From Candidatus Bathyarchaeota archaeon (GTDB taxonomy: Archaea; Thermoproteota; Bathyarchaeia; Bathyarchaeales; Bathycorpusculaceae): a stretch of 64,000 bases of DNA. The translations under genes were made by a program, and so were the position numbers. Position 1 is the first letter of the stretch. Each line of letters opens with the position of its first letter. The DNA is taken from contig CAWHXY010000008.1 of NCBI GenBank assembly GCA_963833575.1, positions 32,001 through 96,000 on the forward strand, in the 5' to 3' direction. Below the pieces are notes generated by a model that was not told where the DNA came from, made no database searches, and worked only from the letters and a program-made list of their open reading frames with translations. Below are positions 4,312-63,372 of this stretch, piece by piece.

Positions 4312-4773
4312 TTGACGCTTGGCTCTTGCTTTTACAGCACGAATTATGTTTTTGCCCAAACTGACCAATCGAGCTCGAAACTGCAGGCGGCCAACACGGC
4401 TGTCGCGCTAGCTTTTAATGCTGTTTTGGCCGCTGAAAAAGCAGGCGCAAACGTTACAAACCTAATAGCTCAGTTAAATACTGCTGCAGGCATCTTGGCT
4501 CAAGCAGAAAACTCGTACCGAACTGGAGATTATAACGCAACAGCGGCCCAAGCAGACAGTGTACTCCCAATTGCACAAGAAGTCACAAGCGTTGCTCAAA
4601 ACGCCAAACAAAAAGCTTTGGTTTCCAGCCAAAATGCCTTCTGGCAGATGATGGCATTTACGGCAATCGGTGCTTCCGTGTTCCTTTTGGTTTTGTTTTC
4701 GATTTGGCGCCGGTTTAAGCAGGGTTACATTAAGAGTTTTTCTGGATCAAAACCTGTGGTGAATAATCGATGA
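4312..4773 (+). CDS. Hypothetical secreted helical protein with C-terminal TM anchor
   Basis: Ala-rich helical body, C-terminal hydrophobic segment followed by WRRFK; overlaps the next gene (ATGA); true start may be slightly upstream. Confidence 0.7.
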   Translation: MTLGSCFYSTNYVFAQTDQSSSKLQAANTAVALAFNAVLAAEKAGANVTNLIAQLNTAAGILAQAENSYRTGDYNATAAQADSVLPIAQEVTSVAQNAKQKALVSSQNAFWQMMAFTAIGASVFLLVLFSIWRRFKQGYIKSFSGSKPVVNNR

Positions 4774-5387: not shown

Positions 5388-5486
5388 ATATTTTTTCGAA
5401 CAAATTTTATTTGTTGTAGTAATTTTTCAATTTCTTGTTGAGAATTGAAAGATAGGTTCCATTCTTTGCCTTTGGGAGATTCTTAA

Positions 5487-46818: not shown

Positions 46819-48123
46819 TTACAGATAAACAGTGTATACATGGTTGTCGGAAAAAGTCTGCTTCCGTATATTGCTGATTTTTGGGTGTCTAATTACAATC
46901 GCAAGAGTTAGTATGACTATTAGTAAGAGCATAACCGCCAGTTCGGGTAACTCTGGAACGGTAGGTGAAGGAGTGGAAGTTGGAGTTTGAATAAGTGTAG
47001 AAGGCGAAGTAGGTAAAACACCTAAAGCATAGACTTTATGGTCATTCGAGCCAACGTAAACTACGCCCCCCACAACAGCTGGAGATGAATAGACGTAGCT
47101 TCCTGTACTATAACTCCAGAGCTTGCTTCCACTTGTTGCATTGAGGGCGTAGACGTTGCAATCCCACGAACCAACATAGACAACTCCGTCGACGACAGCA
47201 GGGGAAGAATCAACATAACTGCCTGCAGTGAAATTCCAAAGTTGGGCGCCGTTATCTGCATTCAAAGCATAAACAGTATAGCCATCCTCTGAGCCAACAT
47301 AGACAATGCCCCCAGCAACAGCAGGACACGAATCAACCTCTCCACCGATGGTATAATTCCAGAGTTGGGTCCCACTGGAAGCATCCAAAGCATAAACGCC
47401 ATAACTTGAGCCTACATAGACTATTCCACCAATAACAGCAGGAGGCGAATCCACCCCTTCGTTAACAGGAGCGTACTTCCAGAGCCTTGCCCCATTGACT
47501 GCATTCAAAGCATAAACTCCCCCATCATTCGAAACGACGTAGACTACCCCGTCGACAATTGCTGGAGACGACTCAAAACTGCCGCCGGCACTGTAGTTCC
47601 AGACTTGCACGCCGTTAGCTGCATTCAAAGCATAAAAGGTACTGTCACTCGAACCTACGTAGACTACGCCGTTAAACACAGCTGGAGACGAATCAATTTT
47701 GCCTCCGGCGGTGTAATTCCAAAGCTTAACCCCGTTGGTTGCATTTAAAGCATAAACGTTATGGTCTTCTGAGCCAATATAGACTATGCCCCCGACAACA
47801 GCAGGTGATGACAAAACCCAGTTTCCTGTGGTGTAATTCCACAATTGGTTGCCGTTTGTAGTGTTTAAAGCATAAACATTATGGTCAAAAGAGCCGACGT
47901 AGACTATGCCGTCGACGACAGCAGGAGATGATTCTACCAAGCCACCGGTGGTGTAGCTCCAAAGTCTCGTAGAATTGAGCACTGAACTGCCTGAGACTAC
48001 ACCGCTGTGAGACAAATCAGCATGGAACATGGTCCAATCAGCGTTTGCAAATGGAATCAAAACTAAGCTGGAAATTAAAAATATTAAGGCAATAAATGCA
48101 AGAAGAATGATTGGAAATCTCAT
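46819..48123 (-). CDS. Secreted PQQ-like/BamB beta-propeller protein with VPEL motif and C-terminal TM
   Basis: Eight SSPAVVxGxVYVGS...YALNA..G..LWNY repeats, DWTMFH start, TP linker, VPEL followed by TM. ORF is open from 48162. Confidence 0.9.
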   Translation of the reverse strand: MRFPIILLAFIALIFLISSLVLIPFANADWTMFHADLSHSGVVSGSSVLNSTRLWSYTTGGLVESSPAVVDGIVYVGSFDHNVYALNTTNGNQLWNYTTGNWVLSSPAVVGGIVYIGSEDHNVYALNATNGVKLWNYTAGGKIDSSPAVFNGVVYVGSSDSTFYALNAANGVQVWNYSAGGSFESSPAIVDGVVYVVSNDGGVYALNAVNGARLWKYAPVNEGVDSPPAVIGGIVYVGSSYGVYALDASSGTQLWNYTIGGEVDSCPAVAGGIVYVGSEDGYTVYALNADNGAQLWNFTAGSYVDSSPAVVDGVVYVGSWDCNVYALNATSGSKLWSYSTGSYVYSSPAVVGGVVYVGSNDHKVYALGVLPTSPSTLIQTPTSTPSPTVPELPELAVMLLLIVILTLAIVIRHPKISNIRKQTFSDNHVYTVYL

Positions 48124-48636
48124 CAATACCACTTTTAAATAACAATTATCTAACACTGACATTTAGTTCTAATCTTGGAACAGCTAAAGAATAGGCTGTT
48201 CTTCTTTTGGAACACTGAAAGCTTATTCAGCATTGAACTTCCACCCTCCAGCAAATCAGGCGGGAGAACGCATTAAACGATTCCTCTTTTGGATACATTA
48301 CTGCATTTCCTATTTTTTTGTTAAATTAGGGTTTTAATCGTTTGCAGGTTGCGGTTTGAAAAGGTTCGGAAGGTCTAAAAAGGTTATAGACTGGGAAAAT
48401 ACTGAAGGTCCACAAGATCAAGCGTATTTTGCAACTAAATTAAAGCTTTTTGAGTTAATTTGGACCCTTCTCGAATTCATGTCTTTTTAGTGTTTTTGTT
48501 CAAAGCTTATGCTATCAGAAAATCAGATGGCAGAAAAGCAAGTCCAGTAACTCTCAAACCTTTCTTTCTTAGAGGATTTCTGATATCCCAGAAGAGTGAA
48601 CCTTCACCATTCCTACCCTCGTGAAACAAACAAAGC

Positions 48637-49254
48637 TTATGCGAAGCAACCTGCTCCAACTAAGATTACAAAAAAGAGTATAGCGAAGTAGAAACTTAGT
48701 TTGCCAAGTTTGTAGTATCGCAATTTTGTTCTAGTTTTCCTTGAAATTGAAAAAGTCTCACGAACATGATCTCTATACGCCTTGCTCAATAAATCATTGG
48801 GACTGCTATTGAAATAACTGGTCCATAGATCGAGCTTCTCATCTGAAATTTCCTTGAAATAAAAAAGAGACTGAGGCTCAAAGGTTTTCTTGCCGTCTTT
48901 AATCTCAGTTTTGTCTTCATTCCGAAACCTTTTGCCTTGTCTGCCGATTCCACCAAGAGATGCTTCCAAAAAAATAAATATTCCAAGAGCAACAAAGATT
49001 GCGAATCCAGCAAAAGAGATTGAAATCAAGTTAAAGTGAGAATTCAAAAGATTAATTTGAACTGATAACTTTAAGTTTGCGAAAACTGCGAATGCAGTGG
49101 CTGCAGTAATAGACAGAAACGCCATCGCCTCCAATATTCTGCCAGCTTTCGTATCCTCATGCTCATTAAGTTCGGTTATATGTTCAAACATTTCCGCGAC
49201 GATTTTGTATTTTTGTTGCAAATCGTCTTTATCGATAGTGCTCACAAAATTCAA
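48637..49254 (-). CDS. Pycsar-type transmembrane effector (PycTM/DUF5706-like)
   Basis: EDTKAGRIL then two TMs, PQSLFYFKEIS, ISRKTRTKLRYY then terminal TM. Confidence 0.75.
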   Translation of the reverse strand: MNFVSTIDKDDLQQKYKIVAEMFEHITELNEHEDTKAGRILEAMAFLSITAATAFAVFANLKLSVQINLLNSHFNLISISFAGFAIFVALGIFIFLEASLGGIGRQGKRFRNEDKTEIKDGKKTFEPQSLFYFKEISDEKLDLWTSYFNSSPNDLLSKAYRDHVRETFSISRKTRTKLRYYKLGKLSFYFAILFFVILVGAGCFA

Positions 49255-49495
49255 AATGCATCAATGTTATATTTAACATTTCCCAGAAACTCAAAGTACA
49301 AAACCAAACTTCTCGAATTCATTTTGATAATAACTTTCTGCTTCTCATAATTTTCCGTGTCATAAGAGAGGCCAATGTCAGAAAGAACTATTTTGACACA
49401 TTAATATATCAATCAGAACATCCCCTCTTATTGTTTTAAGGGAAACGTAAAAAAAGTATTCAGATTAGTAATTCACTGTTTGAAGTGTTACAACT

Positions 49496-49927
49496 ATGTT
49501 ACGTAAACCTTGGAAGCTATCCGTTAAAATCCTGATCTTTGATAACAATGGAAAATTTTTGTTGTTAAGACGGTCACTAAACTCAAAGGGAAATCCTGGT
49601 AAATGGGAGCCACCGGGAGGAAAAATTGATCAAGGTGAAACCTTTGAAACAGCCCTTATGCGCGAGATTGAAGAAGAGACTGGCTTGACCGCTTCAATTC
49701 AGCATGTTGCCGGAACATCTGAATCCGAATTATCTAAAGTAAAGATAGTTCACCTGATTTTAGAAGGAAAATTAGAATCAGGACAAGTACATATTAGCGA
49801 AGAACACATAGAATTTGAATGGATCAAACCTGAGGAACTCAACAACTTTGACATAGCAGATTGGTTTATTCCTTTCGCAGTTGAATACATTGAAAAGAAA
49901 GCGTCAAGCTTAACCAGAAAAACCTAA
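49496..49927 (+). CDS. NUDIX hydrolase
   Basis: Complete Nudix box GGKIDQGETFETALMREIEEETGL; SEEH motif. Confidence 0.93.
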   Translation: MLRKPWKLSVKILIFDNNGKFLLLRRSLNSKGNPGKWEPPGGKIDQGETFETALMREIEEETGLTASIQHVAGTSESELSKVKIVHLILEGKLESGQVHISEEHIEFEWIKPEELNNFDIADWFIPFAVEYIEKKASSLTRKT

Positions 49928-49970
49928 GTTAGACTTCAAATAATTGTTCCTACTGACAAGGGAAGATTAA

Positions 49971-52457
49971 GTGAATTCAACGAAAGAAGATCAAGCTCAA
50001 CTGCTAAACGAGCAGGTTAACCAGTACACAAAGTTATTTTCAAATTACAAATTATTTGCTGATATCTTAGTTCAAATATTTGAGAAAGCTTCAACAAAAT
50101 ATGCGCCTTTAGCAATAGTACAAGCTCGCCCGAAATCAATTTCAAGTTTTGCCGAAAAAATTTTACGGAAAAATAAGTACACTGACCCTCTTAATCAAAT
50201 AACTGATTTATGCGGTGCCAGAGTCATCACACATATTCCTGAAGAAGTCGAGGAAATAGGCAAATATATTGAAAATAATTTTAATGTCGATTTCAATAAC
50301 AGTGTTGATGTAAACCAGAGATTAAAGCCCACAGAATTTGGCTATCGATCCGTTCATTACGTTGTGCAATTCAAAGAGGACATTTTTCCCAATAAAGATG
50401 TTCCCGTAAAGATTCCCGAAGAACTATTTGGTTTAAAGGCAGAAATTCAAGTAAGAACAATCTTGGAGCATTCCTGGGCTGATTTCAGTCATGATTTGAG
50501 CTATAAAGGCTCTTTTAAGATTCCTCAAAAATGGGAACGTGAACTTGCCGGATTAGCTGCCTCACTTGAATCTGCAGATAAAACCTACTCCCGAGTTCAT
50601 AATGGCCTCCAAGTTTATGCTTCCAACTTTGGAGCTTACATGTCTACAGAGCAAATGCAAAATGAAATTAGCCTTCAAGAGTTAGTTTTAGAAAACGATC
50701 CCAATAACTTTGAAGTCGCTCACCGAATAGGAAAAATAGCTATAGTAATGGGTGATTGGCAAAAAGCCATAAATGTTCTCTCCAAGTTCGTCAAATCCGA
50801 TTATCATCCTTTGATTAGAGACCTTGGCGTTGCGCTTTGTACATTCAATAAAGACAATAAAGACAGCACAGAATTCTCTCAAGGTAGAAAGTTTTTAGAA
50901 ATTGCTTGTGCTCCTCCAAATGAAGACATCGATGCACTAACATTTTTAGCAGGTACCTACAGGGGGGTTGACGAAGATAAAGCACGCGAACTTTACCAGC
51001 AAGCTTTTGCTCTCGATTCCACTAATCCTTATGTGCTCGGCAATTATTTAGAATCTGAACTAATCTGTGGACTCGATGTTCCTGCGTTATCCTTGGTTAA
51101 TCCCTTAATTGAGCTGGCAATTAAGAGAAGCCAAAGTCAAGCTGAAGTTGGCGTAAATCTGCAATGGGTATTTTATGATATTGGCCGGTTCTACCTATTT
51201 TTAGGAAAACCCTACGAAAGTCTCAGCGCCTATGCAAAAGCGATACAGGTGAGCTTAAATGATTGGGTCATCGAAGCTGCGCTTAGATCTATTGATCGAC
51301 TTGCAGTTGTAAAAAGTCAATTGACTGGATATGAATGGGTAAAACGGCTGCTTCTAATTGGATTATCATGCAAGTTTCCTGAGAGTGTTGCAGGAAAAAC
51401 TGCATTAAACAAGGCTAAAAAATTAGCCTCAACTAGACATGAACGGCTTAGTGGCGCAATAGTTATTGTGGCCGGCGGAGTCAGCTCCGAAGTTGAACTT
51501 CAAATGTTAACGTACCAGGGCCTTATGTTGGAGGCTTTTTGGGACTTTAAAGGTACAATAATTTCTGGAGGTACAATCTCAGGCATTAGCGGATTAATAG
51601 GGCAAGTGCAAGAAAAATATGCGAGCACAATTAAGACAGTTGGTTACATTCCGAAACCAACCAAAGCAGCATTGATAGATAAACGCTACTGTCAAATTCG
51701 CTTCACTGAGGGTGAAAACTTTAGCCCAACAGAGCCTCTTCAGTATTGGATAGACCTTGTTGACTCAGGCATTAACTGTAATGATGTTAAGCTTTTGGGA
51801 ATAAATGGAGGAATCATATCTTCCATAGAATACAAAATAGCGTTGGCACTTGGAGCGAGCACAGCTATTATTGAGGATGGCAAAATGGAAAAAGAAACGC
51901 TGTTCTCAGATAAAAATTGGAATACTCTGAAGAATTTTGTTCCTATGCTTAATGATTCTTTGACAGCTTGGGCTTTTGTTCAGTCGGGCGCAAAAAAACT
52001 GGACCCAGCCAGCCGAGAACAACTAGGCCAAATTATCCACAAGAACTATCTAGATGCATCTTCACAAAAGAAAAGTCTTGACCCCTCACTGCAGAATTGG
52101 CACAATTTAAAAGATGATTTGAAGGAATCAAATTGCCAGCAAGCTGATCACATAATAGAAAAGCTCAATCGCATTAATTGTTCCACACGTTTAGTAACCG
52201 ACCGTGATATTTCACTTATGCAGTTCTCAAATAGTGAAGTAGAAACAATGGCGCAAATGGAGCACGCCCGATGGAATGTTGAACGCTTTCTTGATGGATG
52301 GCGAAAAGGGCCAAAAGATGTAAGCAGGAAAATCAGCCCCTATCTAGTTTCCTGGTCAGAACTACCGGAGGATATTAAAGACTATGATAGAGATGCTGTC
52401 AAAAAAATTCCTGAAGTTCTAGCAAACATGAACTTGGAAGTAAGGCGCACAAAATAA
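49971..52457 (+). CDS. RelA/SpoT-type alarmone synthetase fused to TPR, SLOG (LSDAT-like) and RyR domains
   Basis: RPKSISSFAEK, DLCGARV, GYRSVHY and EIQVRT (synthetase); TPR-like helices; VAGG...IISGGTISGISGLIG...INGG (SLOG); EHARW...DGW...SPYLVSWSELPEDIKDYDR (RyR). Confidence 0.85.
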   Translation: MNSTKEDQAQLLNEQVNQYTKLFSNYKLFADILVQIFEKASTKYAPLAIVQARPKSISSFAEKILRKNKYTDPLNQITDLCGARVITHIPEEVEEIGKYIENNFNVDFNNSVDVNQRLKPTEFGYRSVHYVVQFKEDIFPNKDVPVKIPEELFGLKAEIQVRTILEHSWADFSHDLSYKGSFKIPQKWERELAGLAASLESADKTYSRVHNGLQVYASNFGAYMSTEQMQNEISLQELVLENDPNNFEVAHRIGKIAIVMGDWQKAINVLSKFVKSDYHPLIRDLGVALCTFNKDNKDSTEFSQGRKFLEIACAPPNEDIDALTFLAGTYRGVDEDKARELYQQAFALDSTNPYVLGNYLESELICGLDVPALSLVNPLIELAIKRSQSQAEVGVNLQWVFYDIGRFYLFLGKPYESLSAYAKAIQVSLNDWVIEAALRSIDRLAVVKSQLTGYEWVKRLLLIGLSCKFPESVAGKTALNKAKKLASTRHERLSGAIVIVAGGVSSEVELQMLTYQGLMLEAFWDFKGTIISGGTISGISGLIGQVQEKYASTIKTVGYIPKPTKAALIDKRYCQIRFTEGENFSPTEPLQYWIDLVDSGINCNDVKLLGINGGIISSIEYKIALALGASTAIIEDGKMEKETLFSDKNWNTLKNFVPMLNDSLTAWAFVQSGAKKLDPASREQLGQIIHKNYLDASSQKKSLDPSLQNWHNLKDDLKESNCQQADHIIEKLNRINCSTRLVTDRDISLMQFSNSEVETMAQMEHARWNVERFLDGWRKGPKDVSRKISPYLVSWSELPEDIKDYDRDAVKKIPEVLANMNLEVRRTK

Positions 52458-52659
52458 TGCGCTCGTGAACTGGATTAGATGACCCGTTTAAGCTTAATTT
52501 TCACGCAAAAACTAAGTTTTTTTTAGCTTAGCGTCGTTCATACATTTACAGTTGATTGAGAATAAAGGATTTTTCGAATCTTTAGTTACCTTAAATTCTT
52601 TAAATCGATAAAGTACTTAGGTATGTTACAGTGAGGTAAATAACAGAGGTATTTCCTAG

Positions 52660-53664
52660 ATGGGAAAAATTCGGGTATTCATTAGTTCTTCTTTAACTGA
52701 ACTTGAAAGCGAAAGGGAAATCGCTCAAGAGACTATTGCTCAACTAAACTTAGAGCCTGTAATGTTTGAAAGTCTTCCTGCAATGGACAAAACATTGGAA
52801 AACGCATATGTAGATGCAATAAAGGAAGCTCATATCTTTGTTTTAATTCTTTGGAAGGACCTGACAGAAGCGGTTGAAAGAGAATATAATGTAGCTAATG
52901 AATATGGGATCCCAATTCTAATGATAGTTAAAATTCCAACTTTCAGGGAAGCAAGAACTCAACGACTTGAAAATCTAATAAATATCGCGGCAAACCAGAA
53001 TCTACAGAGTAATAATCACATTGTTCCATTTCGCAAGAACTTTCGAACGCTTAGTCAACTTGAGAACGTGTTAAAAGAAGGAGTAATGAAACTTGTTTCT
53101 GACAGATTCACAGAACCAGTTTTAACAACAACTAACGTCGATCTAATCTTGGAGACTAATCTAAATATGGTCCAAAACGCTAGAAGAAGACTTCTTGTAG
53201 TTGCTAAAACACCAATACTTCTTTTTGGGCCGCGACCGTATAATTCACCGCACAAAAACTTTGCGAAAAACAAGTTCTATGACGCCTTAATTGCTTGGAT
53301 AGAGAATATGAAAAAAGATGAAAACAAAAAAATGCTCTATCTATATTCTGTTGAAGATACCTATAATGAAATGAAAGAAAACCAGCTTGAACAGTTTGTA
53401 AAAGTTAACGTAGAAAAATACAAGAAAATTGAAGAAGAAACAAACGGACGATTTGAACTCGGATCAATCCAAGAATTTCCAGGTCGCATATGTATTAGTG
53501 ACAATAATTTTGGAATATCATTTAGAGCGCCAAAAGGAAAAGTTGTTTATGTTAATCGTCAAGATGCAAGTTTTTCCTCAAATCTCTTTCAAGCTCTCCG
53601 TGATTGCCGAGGCTCTTCTGAAGCAACCTTGACTAATTTATTAAAGGAACTAAAACTGCAATAG
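52660..53664 (+). CDS. DUF4062 (TIR-like) domain protein with uncharacterised C-terminal domain
   Basis: RVFISSSLTELESERE and AVEREYNVANEYGIPIL motifs. Confidence 0.82.
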   Translation: MGKIRVFISSSLTELESEREIAQETIAQLNLEPVMFESLPAMDKTLENAYVDAIKEAHIFVLILWKDLTEAVEREYNVANEYGIPILMIVKIPTFREARTQRLENLINIAANQNLQSNNHIVPFRKNFRTLSQLENVLKEGVMKLVSDRFTEPVLTTTNVDLILETNLNMVQNARRRLLVVAKTPILLFGPRPYNSPHKNFAKNKFYDALIAWIENMKKDENKKMLYLYSVEDTYNEMKENQLEQFVKVNVEKYKKIEEETNGRFELGSIQEFPGRICISDNNFGISFRAPKGKVVYVNRQDASFSSNLFQALRDCRGSSEATLTNLLKELKLQ

Positions 53665-53901
53665 CGCACGCTATGTCTAGATGAGACAAACGATGGTTGA
53701 AAGAGTAGTTGCTTCTTTCTAAATTCAAAAGAACCTGCTGGTCGAATCCTTAATCAAGAAAGATTTAGATCGTAAAATTACATATAACTAAGCAATCGGT
53801 TGCATTGGCTTTCACTATTATAAAGTTTGTTGCAGAAAAATTAATGAAGATATTTATTGCAGCGTCGCGAGCTACTGGTAGATGAGGAGAGGGAGTGCTG
53901 G

Positions 53902-56900
53902 ATGAGTAAAATTAGGAGATTAATAGCTAAAGCTATGGTATTACTTTTTATTGCGTTGTTTATTTTTCCAATGCTAAATTCTTCCGTAACTGTACATGCA
54001 GCAGAGAATTACCAATACGTAACACAATGGGGCAGTTATGGGTCTGGACCCGGCCAATTCAATGAACCTCTTGGTGTTGCTGTAGACAGTTCAGGAAACG
54101 TCTACGTGGCAGATTGGGGATCTAATAATCGTGTTCAGAAGTTTACTAGTAACGGGGGGTTCATTCTATCGTGGGGAGGCACTGGGTCAGGTAATGGCCA
54201 ATTCAACAATCCTGGTCAGATTGCTGTTGACAGTTCAGGAAACGTCTACGTAGCTGATGCTGCTAATAATCGTGTTCAGAAATTCACTAGCAATGGCGCA
54301 TTCGTTTCATCGTTGGGAGGTTTCTTTAATCCTATCGGAATCGCTGTTGACAGTTCAGGAAACGTCTATGTTCTTGACTCATATAATGATCGGGTGGTAA
54401 AGTTTACTGGCAACGGTGTGTTAATTACATCATGGGGGACCTCTAGTGCAGGTTGGTGCGATGCTGTTGACAGTTCAGGAAACGTCTACGTAGTTGAGCC
54501 TTACATTAATCTTGTTGAAAAGTTCACTAGCACGGGTGTGTTCATTACATCATGGGGAGGCGGTGGTTCAGGTAATGGTCAATTCAGCAATCCGACTGGA
54601 ATTGCTACGGATAGTCAAGATAACGTCTACGTAACTGATACCTACAACCATCGAGTACAAAAGTTTACTAGTAGTGGCGTTTTCATTACTCAATGGAGCA
54701 TTGCAGGCTCTGGTTGGGGTGTTGCTGTTGACAGTTCAGGAAACGTCTACGTAACAGACTATAGCAATATTTGTGTACAAAAGTTCTCTATGCAAGGTAA
54801 CCCGAATCCTGCTCCGGCTGTAGCTTGGAGCCAAACTTACAACGGAATCAGTCTAAATGGTGCAAATTCGGTGGTTCAAACTAATGATGGTGGTTATGCT
54901 TTAACCGGCTCAGCAGACGTTGCAAACAATATTAGTACTACAATCTGGAAACCGTGGCTTATTAAGACGGACTCTAACGGCATGATGCTTTGGAACCAAA
55001 CCTACACCGAAGGGCTTGATTACATTGAACCATATTCACTAGCTAAAACTTCAGATGGCGGATATATGATACTTTGTGGTACAAATACTAATGTTGGCAA
55101 CCCTTGTTACAGGTTGATTAAAACTGATTCAAATGGCAATATGCTTTGGAATAAAACCTATGCAGTAAATCAGTTCGATGCGTTGGGTTCTGTCATCCAG
55201 ACGACTGACGGAGGATATGCCTTTATAGGAACAATGAGTCAACTTGGAAATTCAAATTCATACGCTATGCTTATCAAAACCGATTCCCAGGGCAACATGC
55301 TTTGGAATAAAACATACGGAGGTTTGTATTCCAATGAAGCAGATTCTTTTGTGCAAAACATTGATGGCGGTTACACGATAACAGGGGCTTCAAGTCCATC
55401 TGGAAATAATGAAGCTTGGCTTTTCAGAACTGATTTGAACGGAAATATTTTATGGAGCAAAACGTACGGAATGGGTTTGGATGCATCTTCAAACAGGCTC
55501 ATCTTGACAAGTGATGGTGGTTATGCTTTTGGGGGAACCACAGGCCCTAACTACTTTGGTACTCTTTGGAAGACAGATGCGAATGGAAATCAACAATGGA
55601 ACCAAACATATGTTGGAGCAAACTACTATGGAGTATTTTCTCTTTGTCAAACCAAAGATGGAGGATTTGCACTTATGGGTAGTCCAGGAAACGGTACAGC
55701 CCTTAATCTTCTTGTCAGAACAGACTCTTCTGGCAAAATGTTATGGGATCAATCATATTCTCAATACCTCTCAAACGCCCAGATTAACGCAATGATACTG
55801 ACAAATGATGGATGTTATGCTTTTGCAGGTTCAGTTGTGGATAATTCTGGCAACTCTAGTCCTTTCTTAATGAAGACAGATCCAGAACAAAACACTTCTA
55901 CTACACAAGTTTTACAAATAGGGAATCTGGTTGTAGGAAATCCTGCAAATTCGACTTGGAACTGCAAAGTAACTGACAACGCTACAGGAAATGTAATAAG
56001 CGAATTCACTCTTCCAGCTGCAGGAACAAGCGGTAGCTACACAAACACTGTCCAGTTAAGCAATGGCGGAAGTTACATCGTTTTTGAAGAACCACAACTC
56101 GGTTACCATACAAGTATGCAAATTAATGCCTCACAGGTTGATAGTTTTCAATTCACCGTCAATGTAAACGCAGGTGACAGTCTACAAGTCCTCTTTAATA
56201 ATACTGCCTTGGCTCCTGGATCGTTAGAATTGCCTCCGCCAAGTAGTATGAACTTTTCTATACCTCCTTTAACTCTAATTCCGATCCAAGCCGCATGGAA
56301 CCCAGACGCAAACAACGACGGTACGCTCGATCTCGTAGTCAACAAAACAATGGCGATAATCATCAACTTCACGGTACCAGTTAACCCAACTGATATAGTC
56401 AATCTCTCCGTTAAGTTTGATCAACAAGTATTCACAAAAACAGTTTACGGAGCAATTTTACAGGCAGATTCAATTATTCCTTTTTGCCCAATAACGCCAA
56501 AAAATCTTGGGAACAAAGCCCTCAACGGCACATATCAAATCAACAGTGCTTCTCCAATTAATTTTCCATCCTTGACCGTTAAGGTAAGACAAACTACCGA
56601 TTTACCTTTGGTCTATGGCTACTTTACAAGAAGCAACTACGGAACAGTATCGCAAACAGAATATTCACAAATGGCAAACACTTCAACTGTTTTCATAAAA
56701 GCAACATACCCGGTTACGAACGTTCCCGTCAATGAGAGTTATATCGGTTTAGCAGGCAACTCAAACAGTGGCGGTGGTTATTCTGGTGCAACAAAGGATC
56801 TATCGCTAGTCTTGGGTCCATACGCCAAATCCCATATGGGCCAATACACTAACGCCATTGGCATCGCAATTGAACCTGCTAGCTACTTCACCTACAATGG

Positions 56901-59160
56901 ATTAACGGGCGGTGCTGGATGGACTCCTAATCAAAATACCAAGGCTAGTTTGGTACTGGATGGCGGCTATACTGAAGCAGCTCATGAAGTAGGGCACTCG
57001 TTCGGATTATACATCGGAGCTGTTCCAGAGTACTACCTAATACCAGGTCTTGCTGGAACAAATGTCAGCGGGGTTTACCCTGACATTGATCAGTGGAGAA
57101 CAGGTCTGGACATCATGGATAGATCTAGTCAATCTGGAAACAATTGGGCAAGCACTGGCACATACAATCAATTGTTTAATTGGACCCGAGGAAACTTCAC
57201 TGACCCAGACATTCTCATAGCTAGCGGCATAATTTACAAGAACGGTACCGTTGACCTTTCCACTAGTTGGCTCGAAGTATCCCAAGGCATCCCAGACATT
57301 ATAGCACCTGGCAACTATTCACTTCAATTTTTAGCTGCCAATGGGACAGTTCTGGGTTCAATCACCTTTGACGCTCAAAGTCCTTTGAATTATGACGGTG
57401 CACCTTTCTGTTTTGCAACTGTTTATCCAAAAGGCACAAGCTACGTTAATGTTCTAAATACGGCTAATCAGGCCGCTCCACCAAAAACTCTTGCAACGGT
57501 TCAAGCAGAAGATATCGTAAAGCTAAACAACAGCGTCACGTTCGCTGAAACCGGATTACCCTTGGGCACCTCTTGGAGCGTGACTCTTGGTAGTAAAACT
57601 CTTTCCTCAACGAATTCTACTATCGCATTCACAGGTCTTGCTTATGGTAATTATGATTGGAATTCATCGACTGAAATTTCTGGTGGCGCTGGAATTAGAT
57701 ATGACGCTTCAGTTGCGTCGGGAACAATTGACGTGGAAGGCAATGTTTCCTCGACCATTGCTTACATTACCCAATATCAAGTATCCTTAGCAGTTGACCC
57801 TTCAGGTGCAGGAAGTGCTAATCCAGCCAGCGCCAACTACTATAATGTAGGTACTCAGATTCCAATTTCAGCAGCAGCCAATGATCAATATCAGTTTTTA
57901 GATTGGAGCTCAAATAGCCCATCCATAGTTTTAGCGAATGTCGCTTCGCCATCAACTTCAGCAACTATCAACGGCCCTGGCACAGTTACCTGCGCATTTG
58001 CTTCCACCATCGGCAACAGCGTGGCTTTTGCCGAAACAGGGTTGCCCTCTGGAAAACCTTGGAATGTTACTTTAGGAGGTCAGACGTTGTCTTCCACAAC
58101 TGGCGCGATCGTGTTCACTAATCTGGCTTCGGGAAGCTACAGTTGGAGCACGCCATCTATAATTTCTGGAAGTACAGGAACAAGATATGCAGCTTCAATC
58201 ACGTCAGGAACGTTAAACGTGGCGGGACAAACATCAACTAGCATTACATACACTACTCAATACCAAGTATCTTTCACAATGAACACAGTGGGGTCAGGCG
58301 TAATCAACCCAGCAACAGTCACCTTCTTTGATTCTGGTTCCAAAATCTCAATTTCCGCAACCCCAAAACCAGGCTTCACACTCTACATATGGTCTTCAAA
58401 CACACCTTCAATAACATTCACCAACAGCTCAGCAGCAACCACAACCGCAACCATAACCGGACCCGGCACTGTCACCGCCAACTTTGCCCTACTCGTCGGA
58501 GGTAACAAGCAGATCACCCTTACCGGAAGCAATAATGCGGTAATTATAACCGGCGGAAGTAACCAGATTAACGCGGTACAAGCCTCAGCTACAACTATTG
58601 TCAAAACCGGAGCAGGAAACAACATCATCAACTTAGGCAACGGCAATAATAAGGTGATAGAAACTGCAGATGGCAATGACATAATTTCAACGGGCAACGG
58701 CGACAATGTCCTATCTATTCTGGGAAACGGCAACAACCAAATCACAACAGGTAGCGGAAACGACGTCATCCAAATAACCGGAAACGGAAACAACATCATT
58801 AAAGCAGGTGACGGCGACAATCAAGTCACGGTTAAAGGCTATGGCAACAACCAAATTACAGCTGGGTCTGGAAGTGATGTCATTGTTGCAGGTGATGGAA
58901 ACAACATTATCAAAGCTGGTGATGGCAACAACAAAGTGACACTAGGAAAAGGCAATAACCTGGTCACAACTGGAACAGGTGGCGACGAAGTGACAGTTGG
59001 AAACGGAAACAACAACATTCAAACTGGAGCCGGAGATGATACCATCACCGTTGGCAAAGGCAACAACTACGTCGATGGAGGCGCTGATTACGACATCTGT
59101 TTGCACGGTACAGGGAATAACACGATACTGAACTGCGAAAAAGGAGTAATAGCAAAGTAA
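53902..59160 (+). CDS. Giant secreted protein: NHL propeller, second propeller, zinc metalloprotease, thermopsin-like repeats and RTX-like Gly/Asn repeats
   Basis: Signal peptide; FNxPxGIAVDSSGNVYV repeats; GGY..KTDSNGNMLWNKTY repeats; AAHEVGHSFG; VTFAETGLP repeats; GxGND/NxIxx C-terminal repeats. ORF is open from 53857. Confidence 0.85.
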   Translation: MSKIRRLIAKAMVLLFIALFIFPMLNSSVTVHAAENYQYVTQWGSYGSGPGQFNEPLGVAVDSSGNVYVADWGSNNRVQKFTSNGGFILSWGGTGSGNGQFNNPGQIAVDSSGNVYVADAANNRVQKFTSNGAFVSSLGGFFNPIGIAVDSSGNVYVLDSYNDRVVKFTGNGVLITSWGTSSAGWCDAVDSSGNVYVVEPYINLVEKFTSTGVFITSWGGGGSGNGQFSNPTGIATDSQDNVYVTDTYNHRVQKFTSSGVFITQWSIAGSGWGVAVDSSGNVYVTDYSNICVQKFSMQGNPNPAPAVAWSQTYNGISLNGANSVVQTNDGGYALTGSADVANNISTTIWKPWLIKTDSNGMMLWNQTYTEGLDYIEPYSLAKTSDGGYMILCGTNTNVGNPCYRLIKTDSNGNMLWNKTYAVNQFDALGSVIQTTDGGYAFIGTMSQLGNSNSYAMLIKTDSQGNMLWNKTYGGLYSNEADSFVQNIDGGYTITGASSPSGNNEAWLFRTDLNGNILWSKTYGMGLDASSNRLILTSDGGYAFGGTTGPNYFGTLWKTDANGNQQWNQTYVGANYYGVFSLCQTKDGGFALMGSPGNGTALNLLVRTDSSGKMLWDQSYSQYLSNAQINAMILTNDGCYAFAGSVVDNSGNSSPFLMKTDPEQNTSTTQVLQIGNLVVGNPANSTWNCKVTDNATGNVISEFTLPAAGTSGSYTNTVQLSNGGSYIVFEEPQLGYHTSMQINASQVDSFQFTVNVNAGDSLQVLFNNTALAPGSLELPPPSSMNFSIPPLTLIPIQAAWNPDANNDGTLDLVVNKTMAIIINFTVPVNPTDIVNLSVKFDQQVFTKTVYGAILQADSIIPFCPITPKNLGNKALNGTYQINSASPINFPSLTVKVRQTTDLPLVYGYFTRSNYGTVSQTEYSQMANTSTVFIKATYPVTNVPVNESYIGLAGNSNSGGGYSGATKDLSLVLGPYAKSHMGQYTNAIGIAIEPASYFTYNGLTGGAGWTPNQNTKASLVLDGGYTEAAHEVGHSFGLYIGAVPEYYLIPGLAGTNVSGVYPDIDQWRTGLDIMDRSSQSGNNWASTGTYNQLFNWTRGNFTDPDILIASGIIYKNGTVDLSTSWLEVSQGIPDIIAPGNYSLQFLAANGTVLGSITFDAQSPLNYDGAPFCFATVYPKGTSYVNVLNTANQAAPPKTLATVQAEDIVKLNNSVTFAETGLPLGTSWSVTLGSKTLSSTNSTIAFTGLAYGNYDWNSSTEISGGAGIRYDASVASGTIDVEGNVSSTIAYITQYQVSLAVDPSGAGSANPASANYYNVGTQIPISAAANDQYQFLDWSSNSPSIVLANVASPSTSATINGPGTVTCAFASTIGNSVAFAETGLPSGKPWNVTLGGQTLSSTTGAIVFTNLASGSYSWSTPSIISGSTGTRYAASITSGTLNVAGQTSTSITYTTQYQVSFTMNTVGSGVINPATVTFFDSGSKISISATPKPGFTLYIWSSNTPSITFTNSSAATTTATITGPGTVTANFALLVGGNKQITLTGSNNAVIITGGSNQINAVQASATTIVKTGAGNNIINLGNGNNKVIETADGNDIISTGNGDNVLSILGNGNNQITTGSGNDVIQITGNGNNIIKAGDGDNQVTVKGYGNNQITAGSGSDVIVAGDGNNIIKAGDGNNKVTLGKGNNLVTTGTGGDEVTVGNGNNNIQTGAGDDTITVGKGNNYVDGGADYDICLHGTGNNTILNCEKGVIAK

Positions 59161-59205
59161 CAGGCGTTCAATTTTTCAAACATGAATTTGGAGGTGAAAA
59201 TAGAA

Positions 59206-59628
59206 ATGAAAAGAAATATGATCATAATTGGAACAACCCTCATATTGATATCAATGCTGGCTTCCATAGCCCTGGCAGCGGCGTCAAACGTCTACTACCC
59301 CGACTTGCAGATTCAACTAAAAGGAGTAATCTGGACCATACCTACTGATATTAACCTAGATGGCAAGCCCGATTTTAACAGTTACCTATTGATAAGAAGC
59401 TCCGTTGTGGCTACTGTTTTCGTCGACACAAACAATGACGGACTGATTGACACTACCGTTGTTGTCCATCCGCTTGTAATCCTAATAGATAAGAATGACA
59501 TCTACCTCGTTTTCTGCCCAAGCAGTCTTCCAACAGGCGTGGCGCTCAAGACTTTGGTGACAGCAAACCTCCAAGGTGGAGACTCAATCGTCGCAACAGG
59601 TCCAGGATTCACATATCGAATCAAATAG
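59206..59628 (+). CDS. Small secreted protein with two DxNxDG Ca-binding-like motifs
   Basis: Signal peptide, DINLDGKPD and DTNNDGLID; GGAGGTGA upstream of ATG 59206. Confidence 0.65.
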   Translation: MKRNMIIIGTTLILISMLASIALAAASNVYYPDLQIQLKGVIWTIPTDINLDGKPDFNSYLLIRSSVVATVFVDTNNDGLIDTTVVVHPLVILIDKNDIYLVFCPSSLPTGVALKTLVTANLQGGDSIVATGPGFTYRIK

Positions 59629-59706: not shown

Positions 59707-62700
59707 TTGGATTCGTTAAGTCACACTGTATCAGGAAAAGGATTGTTTATGGGCACTATTCGCGCAGAAAAGGAATACAAGTGGCTGGAAGCAGCGAAAG
59801 CTCATGAACAAAAGGCAAAAACAGAAACAAACAAAAATGTCGCCGCAGAATCTTTTAAAAAAATAGGATTCTGGTACAGTTTAGCCTCAAGGCAAGCTCA
59901 CAGCCCAGAGGAATTCAAGAAACTTAGGAAACTATCAATCGAAGCTTACGAAACGGCCGCCAAACTTTTTCGTGAGAGTACAGCTACAGAAAAAGAAGGA
60001 AGAAGCGCAGATTGTCTAGTAATGGCCGACTACACGAGATCGTGGCTCGCTCCTAACTCTGTTCAGAAATGCGAAATAATTCACAAATGTATCTCCAATG
60101 GGCAAAATGCTTTAGAAGCGTTCAAAAAGATAACCGAGAATTTGAACTACGCCAGAACATGCAACCTTCTAGCCCAGTGCATGTTTGACTTAGTTTCTAT
60201 TACTTCTCAAACAGAAGAAAAACTCGAAGTTGCCAAAAAAGGATTACTTTACGTAATGGATGCAGTCTCAGTTTTGTCTAATTTTGACGAAAAAGGTGAG
60301 TTGATCACTTCCTTCTCCTTGGCTAGTCTTCTCAGTTGGCACATTGCAAACCTTAGCGATCAGGAAGAGGAGAGAAAAGATTTAACGAAGAAATGTTTGA
60401 GTTATGCAACTGATGCTGCAACTCTTGCGAACCAGACAGTTAACCCTTATTCTTGCATCATGTCTTTATGGGCAAAAGCGTTGTCTTCTTTCTATTTCGG
60501 AGAAAAAACCCAGGATTCCTCAAAATATACGCAAAAAATGTTCAAGCTAAGCTCAATCATTGAAGACAATTACTTCAAGGGTGTCGCGTGCTATCTGGAG
60601 GCTTACATTAAAAATTGGAGCGTCGAGGAAGAAGAAGACATTGATAAGAAAAAGAAAGCTTACAACGAAATTATTACCTCTTCAGAAGCAGCAATACAAT
60701 ACTACCAATTGGTCTGTCAGGATTCGGATATCGCAGAAGCCTATTTGTTTTATGCAGAAAGCTACTTATCGTTGGCAAACGAAATCGCCATCTCCATAAA
60801 AGATAAAAAAGATTTTTCCGAAAAATCTGTTAGGATTGGAGAGGAAGGGTTGAAGTTTGCCGTTAGTTCCGGGTCAGTTGATGCAATGCTTTCTACCGTT
60901 CACGCCCTTAGCAAAGCTTATCATTATCGTTCTAAACTCGAACCCGGAATCGATAAGAAACTTGAACTGTTGAAAAACGCTTTAGGCTACAGAGAAGAAA
61001 GCCTAAGGATTGGAGAACAAGCTTTTTCGTCCAACTTCTGGATTTTAGGCGTTGCCATGATCTATGAAGCATTAATAAAAGTGGACTTGGCCAAACTTGA
61101 AGAAAATCAAATCACCAAAGCCACCTACTTAAAAGAAGCAGTTAGAGATATGGAAAGCGGCGTATCTTACAGTAACAAATGGCTCAAAACCTGCTCCGTA
61201 CCCTCACTTGTAACAGTCGCAGCAAACTATGAAGATAGGTTCGGGGGAATGCTTGCTGAACAATACCAACAAACTTGCCAAAAAGAGGATCTGGTCAACG
61301 CAAACAAAACCTACAGCGAAGCCGCAACAAAGTTCAAAGAAGTTGATTTACCCAGTCGAGTAGCAGAATCCTATTGGAAAATTGCTATAAACCTCGATCT
61401 ATTAAGCGAGAACGCTCAAGCTGCGGAGAACTTTGAGAAAGCCTTTTCCTGGTACAAAACAGCGGCTCGAAAAATCGACCAGTTCAACGACTTCTATATC
61501 GATTATGCGTCCTATATGAAAGCATGGAGCGAAATCGAAAATGCCAAATATGCACATAACAATGATAAATACTCAATCGCTGCGAGCCATTATCAAGAAA
61601 CTTCCAATCTTCTCAAACAATCGAAATCCTGGAACTACTTGTCTTCAAACTTTCTTGCTTGGTCACTTCTGGAGCAAGCGGAAGACCTAAGCAGAAAAGA
61701 CAATTGCCGAGAATCTATAATAGCATTCAAGAAATCTGTAGAAACCTTTCGAGAATCCGCGCGAATCTTGCATAATGAATTGGGCAGAATCAACAAGGTT
61801 GATGAACAAAATCTAGTCAAGAGACTAATACACGCATCAAACAATAGGGTCGAATATAGTAATGGAAGAATCGCAATTGAAGAAGCGATAATTTCTGACA
61901 AGCAAGGCGACCACGACAATAGCTCCCGAAAATATGAATCTGCAGCAGAAATCTTTAGAAAAATTGTCCAGATCGATCCGCAGCAAACGGGAAAAGAAGC
62001 TGAACCACTCTTCTATCTCTGCCAAGCATGGCAAAAAATGACTTTGGCGGAGGCCAGGAGCTCTCCCATATTGTACGAGGAAGCAGCAGACCTATTCAAG
62101 CTTGCAAACAAATTCTCGACCAAAGAATCAACTAGCCTATTAGCGTTGGGACACAGCAACTTTTGCAAAGCAATGGAAGCCGGAGCAGAATTTGAAATGA
62201 CAAGAAGCACAACCATGTACGAACAAACAACTAAACATATGAGTTCAGCAGCTAACTATTATCTACGCGCTGGTTTTGAATCGGCCTCGGATTTCACAAA
62301 AGCCACTCAACGCTTATTCGACGCATACGTATTCATGGACACGGCTAAACGTGAAAAAGACCCGCAGAGAGAAGCAAAGTACTATTTGATGGCGGAAAAA
62401 GTGTTGCAAATATCTGCTGAATGTTTTACTAAAGCAGGGCACATTGAAAAAAATGATCAAGTCCAACGTCTACTTAGGAAAGTCAGAGATGAGAAGGAAA
62501 TAGTACTTTCCTTGAATGAAATCTTTAATGCTTCAAGTATTGCGTCGTCAACAGCGAGTTTCGCGACTATAGGACCAAACGAGGAAGAGGCGGTTGGTTT
62601 AGAAAGGTTCGAGCATGGAGACATACAAGCAAAGTTAGATCAAAAAGAAATTGAAACTAACTTGGAAAGTGCCATAAGTCTTGAATTAAAGATTGTAAAC

Positions 62701-63372
62701 GTAGGCAAAGAATCTGTTCGAATGACGAAAATTGAAAAAGTCGTGCCAGCTGGATTTCAAGTAATAACTAAACCAGACTACTGTTCTATTGAGGGCAGTG
62801 CCCTTGTTATGATGGGAAAGAAACTAGGTCCTCTTAAAACTGAAATAATAAGGATTACTTTGAAATCGTCTGAAAAAAGTCCAGTTGAAATTAAGCCTAG
62901 AATTGTTTGCGTTGATGAAACGGGGCTACAAGCAAGCTATGATGTTGAATCAGCCTATGACGTATTTATCAGTTATTCCCAAAATGATAAAAAAGTAGCC
63001 GATGCAATATGCTCCACTTTGGAGAGCCAGGAGATTCGATGTTGGATAGCCCCTCGTAACGTGAATATTAGTAAACCCTTTCTAAGCGAGATTATTCACG
63101 CCCTAAACAATAGCCAGATCTTTGTACTAGTATTCAGCAACAATGCAAACCACTCGAACCATGTTATCAGAGAAACAGAATTAGCAGTCCATAGAGGAAT
63201 TACAATCATACCCTTTCGAATAGAAAACGTCTTGCCAATAGAAAGTATGGAATATTTGATTTCTATTTCACAATGGCTCGACGCAACGACTGTTCCAATT
63301 GAGAAACATTTGCAGAAACTTGTAGAAACCGTACAAGCACTTTTATCAAACAATATCGAAACGCATGATTAG
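59707..63372 (+). CDS. Large TPR/helical-repeat protein with C-terminal TIR domain
   Basis: ~950 aa of AAxxYxxAA helical repeats, Ig-like segment, then YDVFISYS...CWIAPRNV...HVIRETELA (TIR with conserved Glu). Confidence 0.87.
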   Translation: MDSLSHTVSGKGLFMGTIRAEKEYKWLEAAKAHEQKAKTETNKNVAAESFKKIGFWYSLASRQAHSPEEFKKLRKLSIEAYETAAKLFRESTATEKEGRSADCLVMADYTRSWLAPNSVQKCEIIHKCISNGQNALEAFKKITENLNYARTCNLLAQCMFDLVSITSQTEEKLEVAKKGLLYVMDAVSVLSNFDEKGELITSFSLASLLSWHIANLSDQEEERKDLTKKCLSYATDAATLANQTVNPYSCIMSLWAKALSSFYFGEKTQDSSKYTQKMFKLSSIIEDNYFKGVACYLEAYIKNWSVEEEEDIDKKKKAYNEIITSSEAAIQYYQLVCQDSDIAEAYLFYAESYLSLANEIAISIKDKKDFSEKSVRIGEEGLKFAVSSGSVDAMLSTVHALSKAYHYRSKLEPGIDKKLELLKNALGYREESLRIGEQAFSSNFWILGVAMIYEALIKVDLAKLEENQITKATYLKEAVRDMESGVSYSNKWLKTCSVPSLVTVAANYEDRFGGMLAEQYQQTCQKEDLVNANKTYSEAATKFKEVDLPSRVAESYWKIAINLDLLSENAQAAENFEKAFSWYKTAARKIDQFNDFYIDYASYMKAWSEIENAKYAHNNDKYSIAASHYQETSNLLKQSKSWNYLSSNFLAWSLLEQAEDLSRKDNCRESIIAFKKSVETFRESARILHNELGRINKVDEQNLVKRLIHASNNRVEYSNGRIAIEEAIISDKQGDHDNSSRKYESAAEIFRKIVQIDPQQTGKEAEPLFYLCQAWQKMTLAEARSSPILYEEAADLFKLANKFSTKESTSLLALGHSNFCKAMEAGAEFEMTRSTTMYEQTTKHMSSAANYYLRAGFESASDFTKATQRLFDAYVFMDTAKREKDPQREAKYYLMAEKVLQISAECFTKAGHIEKNDQVQRLLRKVRDEKEIVLSLNEIFNASSIASSTASFATIGPNEEEAVGLERFEHGDIQAKLDQKEIETNLESAISLELKIVNVGKESVRMTKIEKVVPAGFQVITKPDYCSIEGSALVMMGKKLGPLKTEIIRITLKSSEKSPVEIKPRIVCVDETGLQASYDVESAYDVFISYSQNDKKVADAICSTLESQEIRCWIAPRNVNISKPFLSEIIHALNNSQIFVLVFSNNANHSNHVIRETELAVHRGITIIPFRIENVLPIESMEYLISISQWLDATTVPIEKHLQKLVETVQALLSNNIETHD

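Follow-up and report, generated by a model that had tools for sequence, protein, structure and literature searches.

We describe an archaeal locus in which TIR-type genes and a gene for a NUDIX hydrolase accompany a gene for an 828-amino-acid (aa) protein that joins a RelA/SpoT-type (Rel) domain, a TPR region, a SLOG domain and a RyR domain. The locus lies in a stretch of 64,000 nucleotides (nt) from Candidatus Bathyarchaeota archaeon (GCA_963833575.1, contig CAWHXY010000008.1, positions 32,001–96,000 of the forward strand), which was analysed as a whole and is called the window below. We regard it as an even call whether this locus is a Thoeris-like relay with an alarmone-synthetase-type effector, conserved as TIR-type gene(s), NUDIX and the Rel-TPR-SLOG-RyR protein. 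The reading is based on the SLOG domain, a known receiver of TIR products, on the multiple TIR genes of several related loci, on the fixed and co-oriented positions of these TIR genes, and on the high density of TIR genes in the flanks of the Rel homologues.

A first-pass annotation of the window, made from the sequence alone, had proposed a four-gene nucleotide-signalling system consisting of a PycTM-like membrane protein, NUDIX, the RelA/SpoT-TPR-SLOG-RyR protein and a DUF4062 protein. All four open reading frames (ORFs) were recovered with the coordinates, strands and lengths that it gave (Table 1), and its domain calls hold by Pfam, PADLOC and fold comparison. The composition of the conserved system came out differently, as described below.

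The core protein carries a Rel-type synthetase domain and a SLOG domain

The 828-aa protein matched the Pfam families RelA_SpoT (PF04607; E = 3e-19) and RyR (PF02026; E = 4e-13) as well as several TPR families. An AlphaFold2 model built on 27 homologues (pLDDT 85.5, pTM 0.73) was searched against ~48,000 PDB representatives. The fold of the Rel domain matched the small alarmone synthetases (SASs) SAS1 (5dec, Z 17.2), RelP (6ewz, Z 16.9) and SAS2 (6fgk, Z 16.0), and also CapRel (7ztb, Z 11.8), a fused sensor-toxin defence protein. Residue conservation was determined from 27 homologues that are 46–83% identical to the window protein. In the Rel domain, R53, K55, K63, D79, G82, R84, E158, Q160, T163, H174 and K179 are invariant across the 27 sequences, and Y178 is kept in at least 90% of them. 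Presumably these residues are the synthetase motifs of RelA/SpoT homologues, RxKxxxSxxxK, D-x-x-G-x-R, E-x-Q-x-R-T and H-x-x-x-Y-K, together with the GYRSxH stretch.

The TPR region gave the central regulatory region of ASK1 (Z 18.2) and other TPR proteins. The region that follows it, which the first-pass annotation had read as a SLOG domain, is a real Rossmannoid SLOG fold: it matched the LOG-type protein TM1055 (Z 16.7) and MCP (Z 15.6), along with TRPM7, TRPM5, TRPM8, LOG and DprA, and it superposed on the N-terminal domain of TRPM2 (8sr7, Z 14.9, root-mean-square deviation 2.8, 183 aligned residues; 7aov, Z 14.5). SLOG and LSDAT families were reportedly defined by Burroughs et al. in 2015 (NAR). 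The LSDAT_prok match is weak in the window protein itself (E = 0.15), and the family (PF18171) is precomputed in 67 of 120 homologues among the matches listed, by hand count. Four residues of the two glycine-rich SLOG loops (G528, T529, G610 and G613) are invariant in the 27 sequences, with G614 and E620 present in at least 90%. The RyR domain matched a RyR1 repeat by sequence (1.3e-11, or 1e-21 with a profile) and, by Foldseek, RyR3 Repeat12 entries titled as complexes with AMP-PCP or ADP. Judged by these sequence features, both the Rel enzyme and the SLOG sensor look functional.

NUDIX and TIR-type genes are linked to the core gene across loci

To survey the neighbourhoods of related genes, a profile scan of JGI metagenome contigs was used, which gave 580 confirmed matches. 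The best 80 of these and one genome locus (L002) made up 81 loci, and merging those with Rel proteins at least 90% identical left 66 non-redundant loci. ORFs were called mechanically, and the neighbours were searched with the window proteins and clustered, the clusters being identified by Pfam. The labels TIR, SLATT, Clp and NUDIX were assigned with hidden Markov models (HMMs) that had been trained on these same neighbours and spot-checked with Pfam, and many contigs are short. The TIR counts are lower bounds, since one DUF4062-NACHT protein, in L040, escaped the HMM.

The data showed that a same-strand NUDIX gene adjoins the Rel gene in 38 of the 66 loci (30 upstream, 8 downstream) and occurs anywhere in the locus in 46. 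TIR genes were found in 28 loci, within three genes of Rel in 26, and seven loci carry two to four of them. These TIR genes are co-oriented with Rel and take the fixed positions −2 or +1; a TIR_2 gene follows Rel directly in L014, L015, L023, L025, L026 and L046. By a crude comparison, the flanks contain 38 TIR genes per 474 kb, or ~80 per Mb, versus 1 per 2.75 Mb in the window genome. Where at least two genes are present on each side of Rel (n = 35), NUDIX was found in 27 loci and TIR in 18. ClpB-like AAA+ genes are present in 11/66 loci, and 8/66 have none of NUDIX, TIR, SLATT and ClpB-like genes. The largest neighbour cluster contains TIR_2 in 8 of 10 tested members, fused to LRR, LVIVD, NHL/lactonase propellers or uncharacterised regions, the remaining two being a DUF4062-NACHT protein and a protein with at least WD40. 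Among 48 further same-strand neighbours scanned with Pfam, TrkA_N was found in 11, RyR in 10, WD40 in 7 and NACHT in 7; the TrkA_N/RyR neighbours are proteins of ~605 aa.

A FastTree phylogeny was built from 64 Rel proteins and the window's, two short fragments having been dropped. The clade of the window protein comprises 31 rows with a Shimodaira-Hasegawa-like support of 97; TIR or DUF4062 genes occur in 21 of them and NUDIX is usually upstream, and of the ten rows with neither TIR nor DUF4062, seven are loci shorter than 7 kb. TIR is present in 8 of the 34 rows outside this clade.

The predicted linkage of NUDIX and TIR-type genes to the gene of the 828-aa protein is thus borne out across many genomes. 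The membrane proteins expected as further neighbours fared less well, with SLATT in 8/66 loci and PycTM in only one of 81. Because of these linkage counts, we define the conserved system as TIR(-like), NUDIX and Rel-SLOG genes, PycTM being lineage-specific at best.

Two TIR-type proteins are encoded in the window

The TIR-type gene directly downstream of Rel encodes a DUF4062 protein (PF13271, E = 4e-12), the single DUF4062 match in the genome. In the window it fills the +1 slot that TIR_2 holds in sister loci, and it adjoins Rel both here and in L007. In its model (pLDDT 84.8), the N-terminal half matches BcmB and the SPARTA TIR. An alignment of 28 sequences revealed that F7, S9, S10, E75 and E97 are invariant, as is the E75-Y76 pair. 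The C-terminal half (aa 155–334), overlooked in the first-pass annotation, is phospholipase D (PLD)-like, with matches to TrmBL2, phospholipase D, NucT and FAM83. No invariant His or Lys of an HKD motif was found in this domain among the 28 sequences, and a role in binding or sensing, not as a nuclease, is probable.

The DUF4062 subfamily is small, with 47 clusters, and its full-length protein occurs only in the window's genome among 401 sampled in the phylum. Similarity to KpSwz (326 aa) is confined to residues 4–64 (E = 0.29). Four family members share their exact longest-contig size (8002, 92266, 287366 and 5506) with Rel homologues that are 55–80% identical to the window protein; this link is indirect, and the short ones are possibly due to chance. 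The subfamily appears to be tied to Rel-SLOG genes and not to stand alone. In the accessible parts of preprints from 2026, DUF4062 is described as a TIR-like NADase that yields ADP-ribose (ADPR) and nicotinamide, as the NAD+-depleting effector of the single-gene or NLR-like defences Swarozyc, Evangelion, NIR-Avs, Vulcan and Vesta, and, for Eva01, as having an E-Y catalytic motif. The DUF4062 gene of the window is a candidate signal generator or, in a rival reading that is serious because DUF4062 has been shown to be a stand-alone NADase defence effector, a separate NADase effector.

A 1221-aa cytosolic protein further downstream, also overlooked before, carries TIR_2 near its C-terminus (E = 7.2e-19) and is the sole TIR_2 match in the 2.75-Mb genome. 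It scored 139 bits against the HMM from TIR genes that flank Rel homologues, and its E1156 aligns with the Glu found in 34/34 TIR domains. No transmembrane (TM) segment was predicted in this protein and no Pfam match was obtained in its first ~1085 aa; homologues of that N-terminal part occur in L007 only among the loci. The protein is a probable second signal generator. The sole TIR_2 and the sole DUF4062 of the genome both lie within 11 kb of its sole Rel-SLOG gene.

The NUDIX partner is MutT-like

The NUDIX protein matched PF00293 (E = 1.8e-23) and the PADLOC model PDC-S07 (4.4e-24, profile positions 8–131 of 135). Its closest PDB relatives are the MutT-related protein 3grn (4.5e-25), NudI, NudG and MutT, and its best NCBIfam model, below cut-off, is a pyrimidine (d)NTP diphosphatase. 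P40, G41, G42, K43, E57, E60 and E61 of the Nudix box are invariant in 31 sequences. It resembles NTP pyrophosphohydrolases of the MutT/NudG/NudI type more closely than ADPR pyrophosphatases. Because the Nudix enzymes MutT, NudG and Bacillus NahA are reported, in the accessible portions of the literature, to act on (p)ppGpp, the Rel product is at least as likely a predicted target as the TIR signal. With a catalytically intact NUDIX next to Rel in 38/66 loci, the gene occupies a candidate antitoxin position like that of toxic SAS (toxSAS) modules. Taken together, the residue alignments show that the catalytic motifs are kept in Rel, NUDIX, TIR and DUF4062, in support of the first-pass annotation.

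PycTM is at most an add-on

The 205-aa protein encoded divergently from NUDIX matched the PADLOC model of PycTM (6.4e-9) and contains three hydrophobic segments. No Pfam match was found in the protein itself; 17 of its 42 aligned relatives match Pfam PycTM (PF18967). The gene is single-copy in the genome, and 30 further genomes of the same family yielded no match. The first-pass annotation counted it as a conserved member of the system, which the loci do not support: in the 81 loci the profile of the 42-member family gave a single hit, L007, and there the Rel protein is 95% identical to that of the window. A possible third co-occurrence, which could be chance, is a PycTM homologue (61% identical) that shares its longest-contig size, 10033, and its source with a Rel homologue (52%). 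These results indicate that PycTM is a lineage-specific add-on at most.

SLATT/DUF4231 proteins with two TM segments occur in 8/66 loci, all of which also carry TIR. No relation of these proteins to PycTM (hhalign probability 11%) or to the Rel family (0.2%) emerged.

The core gene is sporadically distributed

A word-indexed search with the 828-aa protein gave 810 homologues at E ≤ 1e-3 among 8000 scored. Every one of the 120 homologues among the matches listed carries RelA_SpoT and RyR, and most of these are 820–907 aa long. Named sources among the matches listed include metagenome-assembled genomes of Altiarchaeales, Chloroflexota, Proteobacteria, Planctomycetes, Bacteroidota, Omnitrophica and Eisenbacteria. 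In the phylum of the host, 5 of 401 sampled genomes have a match at E ≤ 1e-20, four of which cover only residues 15–229; the full-length protein is present in 1/401, and in 1/11 genomes of the genus. The Rel-SLOG gene is single-copy in the window's genome. It is an accessory gene, and its patchy occurrence would fit a horizontal spread.

Seventeen viral contigs (L087–L103) encode short Rel/SAS-like domains that are 26–37% identical to query residues 12–241. No full-length Rel-TPR-SLOG-RyR protein was found on these viral contigs. Some longer forms were also seen: the homologues P0008–P0010 (1053–1060 aa) carry an extra KaiC/RecA-like ATPase domain (PF06745), and the Rel ORFs of L008 and L009–L012 have 1060–1107 aa.

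Comparison with known systems

Thoeris pairs the TIR protein ThsB with ThsA, a SIR2-SLOG effector, and its later types use other effectors. TIR-to-SLOG signalling in this system is described in the introduction of 10.64898/2025.12.03.692087. The present locus is like Thoeris in that one or often several TIR genes lie beside one SLOG-carrying effector, in that the catalytic Glu is kept (34/34 TIR domains; E75 invariant in DUF4062), in its accessory and sporadic distribution, and in the fusion of SLOG (Z 14.5–16.7) to a candidate toxic Rel/SAS domain (Z 16–17). In contrast to Thoeris, the effector here is a RelA/SpoT-type pyrophosphokinase with TPR and RyR parts and not SIR2, Macro-TM, a protease or another known type, its SLOG is of the LSDAT/TRPM type, and NUDIX is a conserved third component. 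Many TIR proteins here are large STAND/WD40/LRR fusions, and the adjacent TIR-like gene in the window is DUF4062. The terms alarmone, ppGpp, Nudix and RyR are absent from the accessible main text of a survey of 29 Thoeris types (10.64898/2025.12.03.692087).

With the toxSAS proteins CapRel, FaRel2 and Tas1, the core protein shares the Rel/SAS fold and the conserved synthetase motifs, and a small adjacent gene could neutralise the product. It differs in being much larger, with TPR-SLOG-RyR sensor domains and a linkage to TIR genes, and its partner is NUDIX where those have a small alarmone hydrolase or a binding antitoxin. The DUF4062 protein is comparable to the DUF4062/NIR defences (Swarozyc, Evangelion, Vulcan, Vesta and NIR-Avs) in its N-terminal DUF4062 with F7 and E75-Y76 and in its C-terminal auxiliary domain, and at 334 aa it is close in size to the Swarozyc protein KpSwz (326 aa). 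In contrast to these, its auxiliary domain is PLD-like, its match to KpSwz is confined to the short N-terminal segment given above, and its subfamily seems to go with Rel-SLOG genes, judging from the window, from L007 and from the four shared contig sizes.

A Pycsar system, in which a pyrimidine cyclase of the class III family (PycC) is encoded with a PycTM or PycTIR effector, was considered as well, the 205-aa protein being of the PycTM family. No match to Guanylate_cyc (PF00211), the family of Pycsar cyclases, was found in the 94%-complete genome, and for this reason the locus is not Pycsar; the neighbours of the gene are likewise unrelated to Pycsar. The SLOG domain superposes on that of TRPM2 (Z 14.9 and 14.5), a channel with an N-terminal SLOG/TRPM homology region and a C-terminal NUDT9-H NUDIX domain, and NUDIX is a constant partner here also; the RyR domain in turn matches the ryanodine receptor repeats. 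Unlike these channels, the 828-aa protein is a soluble enzyme and its NUDIX is separate and MutT-like. We take the likeness to ADPR-gated channels as a parallel in evolution; it does not make the protein one of them.

As the first-pass annotation had expected, no complete named system matches the locus, and no member of the Pycsar cyclase family was found in the genome. In PADLOC, the NUDIX and Rel parts are met only by single-gene candidate models. We found neither an experimental nor a named description of this system in the literature; an earlier computational mention is possible in the SLOG/LSDAT-defining papers, in Burroughs & Aravind 2020 (J Bacteriol) or in supplements (Table S1 of 10.64898/2025.12.03.692087 and Figure S1 of 10.64898/2026.05.01.722283). 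Literature that combines 'alarmone synthetase' with Thoeris consists only of overview pieces, going by titles and the beginnings of abstracts. The locus would therefore be a case of TIR-to-SLOG signalling, itself known, whose effector is new and in which NUDIX is conserved.

Proposed mechanism and alternatives

From the domain identities, catalytic residues, gene linkage and sporadic distribution described above, we infer the chemical steps, the direction of signalling and an antiviral role. In the Thoeris-like relay, variable non-catalytic parts of the TIR-type proteins would detect the invader, and the TIR or DUF4062 domains would cleave NAD+ to ADP-ribose or to a cyclic or conjugated derivative. 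This NAD-derived molecule would bind the SLOG domain of the 828-aa protein, like 3'cADPR on ThsA, and its binding would lift an inhibition imposed via the TPR/RyR part. The N-terminal pyrophosphokinase could then make (p)ppGpp/(p)ppApp-type nucleotides or pyrophosphorylate tRNA, and growth would stop. NUDIX, usually encoded just upstream on the same strand, would hydrolyse the Rel product or the signal, which would provide a threshold and a reset.

If this is true, TIR immune signalling gains a new output, an enzyme of the alarmone-synthetase type, and NAD-derived signalling is joined with (p)ppNpp signalling. It also hints that signal generation, and not just the depletion of NAD+ as an effector, may be the task of at least one DUF4062 subfamily. 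The family concerned is large and spans bacteria and archaea, with the 810 homologues and 580 confirmed metagenome matches. The 828-aa protein offers a purifiable object for finding the ligands of LSDAT-type SLOG and RyR domains, which matters for how the ryanodine-receptor repeats and the ADP-ribose-sensing parts of TRPM channels arose.

Several points weigh against the relay. TIR is not universal among Rel-SLOG loci: the HMM detected none in 38 of the 66, and in a second Rel clade TIR genes are few, the neighbours there being ClpB-like genes, NUDIX on the downstream side and TrkA_N-RyR proteins. The loci lean toward the window's own clade, being the best 80 of 580, and the TIR HMM was seeded from the Rel neighbours themselves, with seeds that were Pfam-confirmed. 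In the window, two genes for secreted proteins separate the TIR_2 gene from the core, and there is no dense defence island, only 2 of the 33 other ORFs having a PADLOC match at 1e-5, one of them the TIR protein. According to the accessible parts of the sources, NACHT/WD40-fused TIR proteins and all characterised DUF4062 proteins are NAD+-depleting effectors themselves; such proteins, the DUF4062 protein included, may signal to nothing.

NUDIX and the 828-aa protein could also be a self-contained toxSAS-type module in which TPR-SLOG-RyR directly senses a phage protein or a host metabolite (for example, ADPR from NAD+ depletion) and NUDIX is the enzymatic antidote, with the TIR and DUF4062 genes as independent NADase genes that cluster nearby. 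NUDIX is indeed the tightest partner of Rel (adjacent in 38/66 loci and present in 46, versus 28 for TIR), and 27 loci (46 minus the 19 with both) have it with no TIR detected. It also resembles MutT, NudG and NudI, and enzymes of this kind act on (p)ppGpp, while characterised DUF4062 proteins act alone, as far as the accessible literature goes; PADLOC, too, lists the Rel-like PDC-S33 and the NUDIX PDC-S07 as single-gene candidates. Such independence fits poorly with a TIR density in the flanks that is ~200 times that of the window genome, with co-oriented TIR genes at fixed −2 or +1 positions, with SLOG as a known receiver of TIR products and with the presence of TIR in all eight SLATT loci, and we consider the two-gene module unlikely. 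The four-gene system of the first-pass annotation would make PycTM an integral second effector gated by a nucleotide that TIR/DUF4062 or Rel makes. In its favour, PycTM is adjacent and divergent in both the window and L007, no Guanylate_cyc-family cyclase that might serve the single PycTM was found in the genome, a contig size (10033) shared by PycTM and Rel homologues is suggestive, and the eight SLATT loci, always with TIR, point to a membrane-effector slot in some variants. Yet the PycTM profile hit one of 81 loci, and that one is 95% identical; the gene lies on the opposite strand, and hhalign gave no sign of a relation between PycTM and SLATT. We give this version little credence.

The locus might also be a physiological regulator with no role in defence, which would make alarmone-type growth control respond to NAD+/ADP-ribose status through SLOG, RyR and the TrkA_N-RyR neighbours, in redox or energy stress for instance. 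The TrkA_N (11/48) and RyR (10/48) domains among the other same-strand neighbours, the ClpB-like chaperone genes in 11/66 loci and the sparse defence context of the window would suit it, as would the eukaryotic counterparts of SLOG, NUDIX and RyR (TRPM2 being among the fold matches), which act in ADPR-linked channel regulation. Its sporadic, accessory distribution (1/401 in the phylum, 1/11 in the genus), the multiple TIR paralogues of several loci and the association with SLATT and with NACHT/WD40/LRR-fused TIR proteins, typical of conflict systems, make such a regulator quite improbable. A two-tier relay, finally, would extend the Thoeris-like scheme: a first NAD+-derived messenger from TIR/DUF4062 would act through SLOG on Rel, and an alarmone-type second messenger would both arrest growth and gate PycTM/SLATT, with NUDIX as eraser. 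We regard this extension as a long shot. If true, it would be the first defence cascade to unite NAD-derived and (p)ppNpp-type signalling, and a prokaryotic forerunner of the SLOG, NUDIX and RyR modules that regulate TRPM2 and ryanodine-receptor channels.

Layout of the locus, host and flanking genes

The features of the locus are collected in Table 1. The gap between the NUDIX stop codon and the start of the 828-aa ORF is 43 nt, the DUF4062 gene begins 202 nt downstream of the 828-aa gene, and 241 nt lie between the starts of the 205-aa gene and of the divergent NUDIX gene.

Table 1 Positions of the genes and domains of the Rel-SLOG locus within the window
Feature	Position (nt)	Strand	Basis or remark
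PycTM-family membrane protein, 205 aa	48637..49254	(-)	Divergent from NUDIX; system membership uncertain
NUDIX hydrolase, 143 aa, MutT/NudG/NudI-like, intact Nudix box	49496..49927	(+)	Closest-linked partner of the 828-aa gene
Core protein RelA/SpoT-TPR-SLOG-RyR, 828 aa	49971..52457	(+)	Pfam and model folds
Rel/SAS-like nucleotide pyrophosphokinase domain, aa 16-216	50016..50618	(+)	Fold matches
TPR helical repeat region, aa 220-486	50628..51428	(+)	Pfam and fold
SLOG domain, LSDAT/TRPM type, aa 485-674, predicted ligand sensor	51423..51992	(+)	Fold matches
RyR domain, aa 746-825	52206..52445	(+)	PF02026
DUF4062 protein with C-terminal PLD-like domain, 334 aa	52660..53664	(+)	PF13271 and fold
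NHL/RTX repeat protein (1767 aa) and 148-aa ORF, intervening	53857..59628	(+)	Pfam; N-terminal hydrophobic segments
1221-aa protein with C-terminal TIR_2 (aa 1086-1205, nt 62962-63321)	59707..63372	(+)	Pfam

The host is an archaeon, as had been supposed: its small-subunit ribosomal RNA matches the archaeal Rfam model end to end with 1486 bits, the best in clan competition. The 1767-aa protein that intervenes between the DUF4062 and TIR_2 genes (53857–59160, + strand) contains an NHL propeller, RTX calcium-binding and InlB B-repeats by Pfam, and both it and the 148-aa ORF begin with a hydrophobic anchor or signal. Homologues of these two genes occur only in L007 among the loci. Both look extracellular and are probably unrelated cargo outside the system. 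No further system component was found downstream of the TIR gene, where opposite-strand Ig-like and helix-turn-helix genes lie. On the other side, the locus is flanked by a PQQ/BamB-like beta-propeller gene (46819–48162, − strand) of an expanded paralogous group, which has 16 matches in this genome and the same number in a congener. With that many matches in the same genome, this gene proved unsuitable for defining the island borders by synteny. A PADLOC match to 'mad2' of the MADS system (2e-17) was seen in one of the 33 ORFs outside the locus, which was not among the ten rescanned ORFs.

Additional genes recur beside Rel in related loci. Proteins of ~605 aa with TrkA_N and RyR are encoded upstream of Rel in five loci of one clade (L024:3416-5233, L044:6654-8480, L051:5019-6842, L035:2819-4627 and L037:5181-7010). 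Those of L024, L044 and L051 were scanned singly and consist of an NAD-binding TrkA_N and a C-terminal RyR; the ~605-aa proteins are weakly similar to the C-terminal part of the 828-aa protein. In L071, the NUDIX partner itself is fused to an N-terminal TrkA_N (4759-5982, 407 aa). ClpB-like double AAA+ ATPases, found at L037:2252-4618, L075:882-3281 and in nine other loci, belong mostly to the TIR-poor clade with downstream NUDIX. A small TY-Chap1/YbjN-like protein is encoded directly downstream of Rel at L024:10683-11114, L037:9897-10328 and L040:7597-8022.

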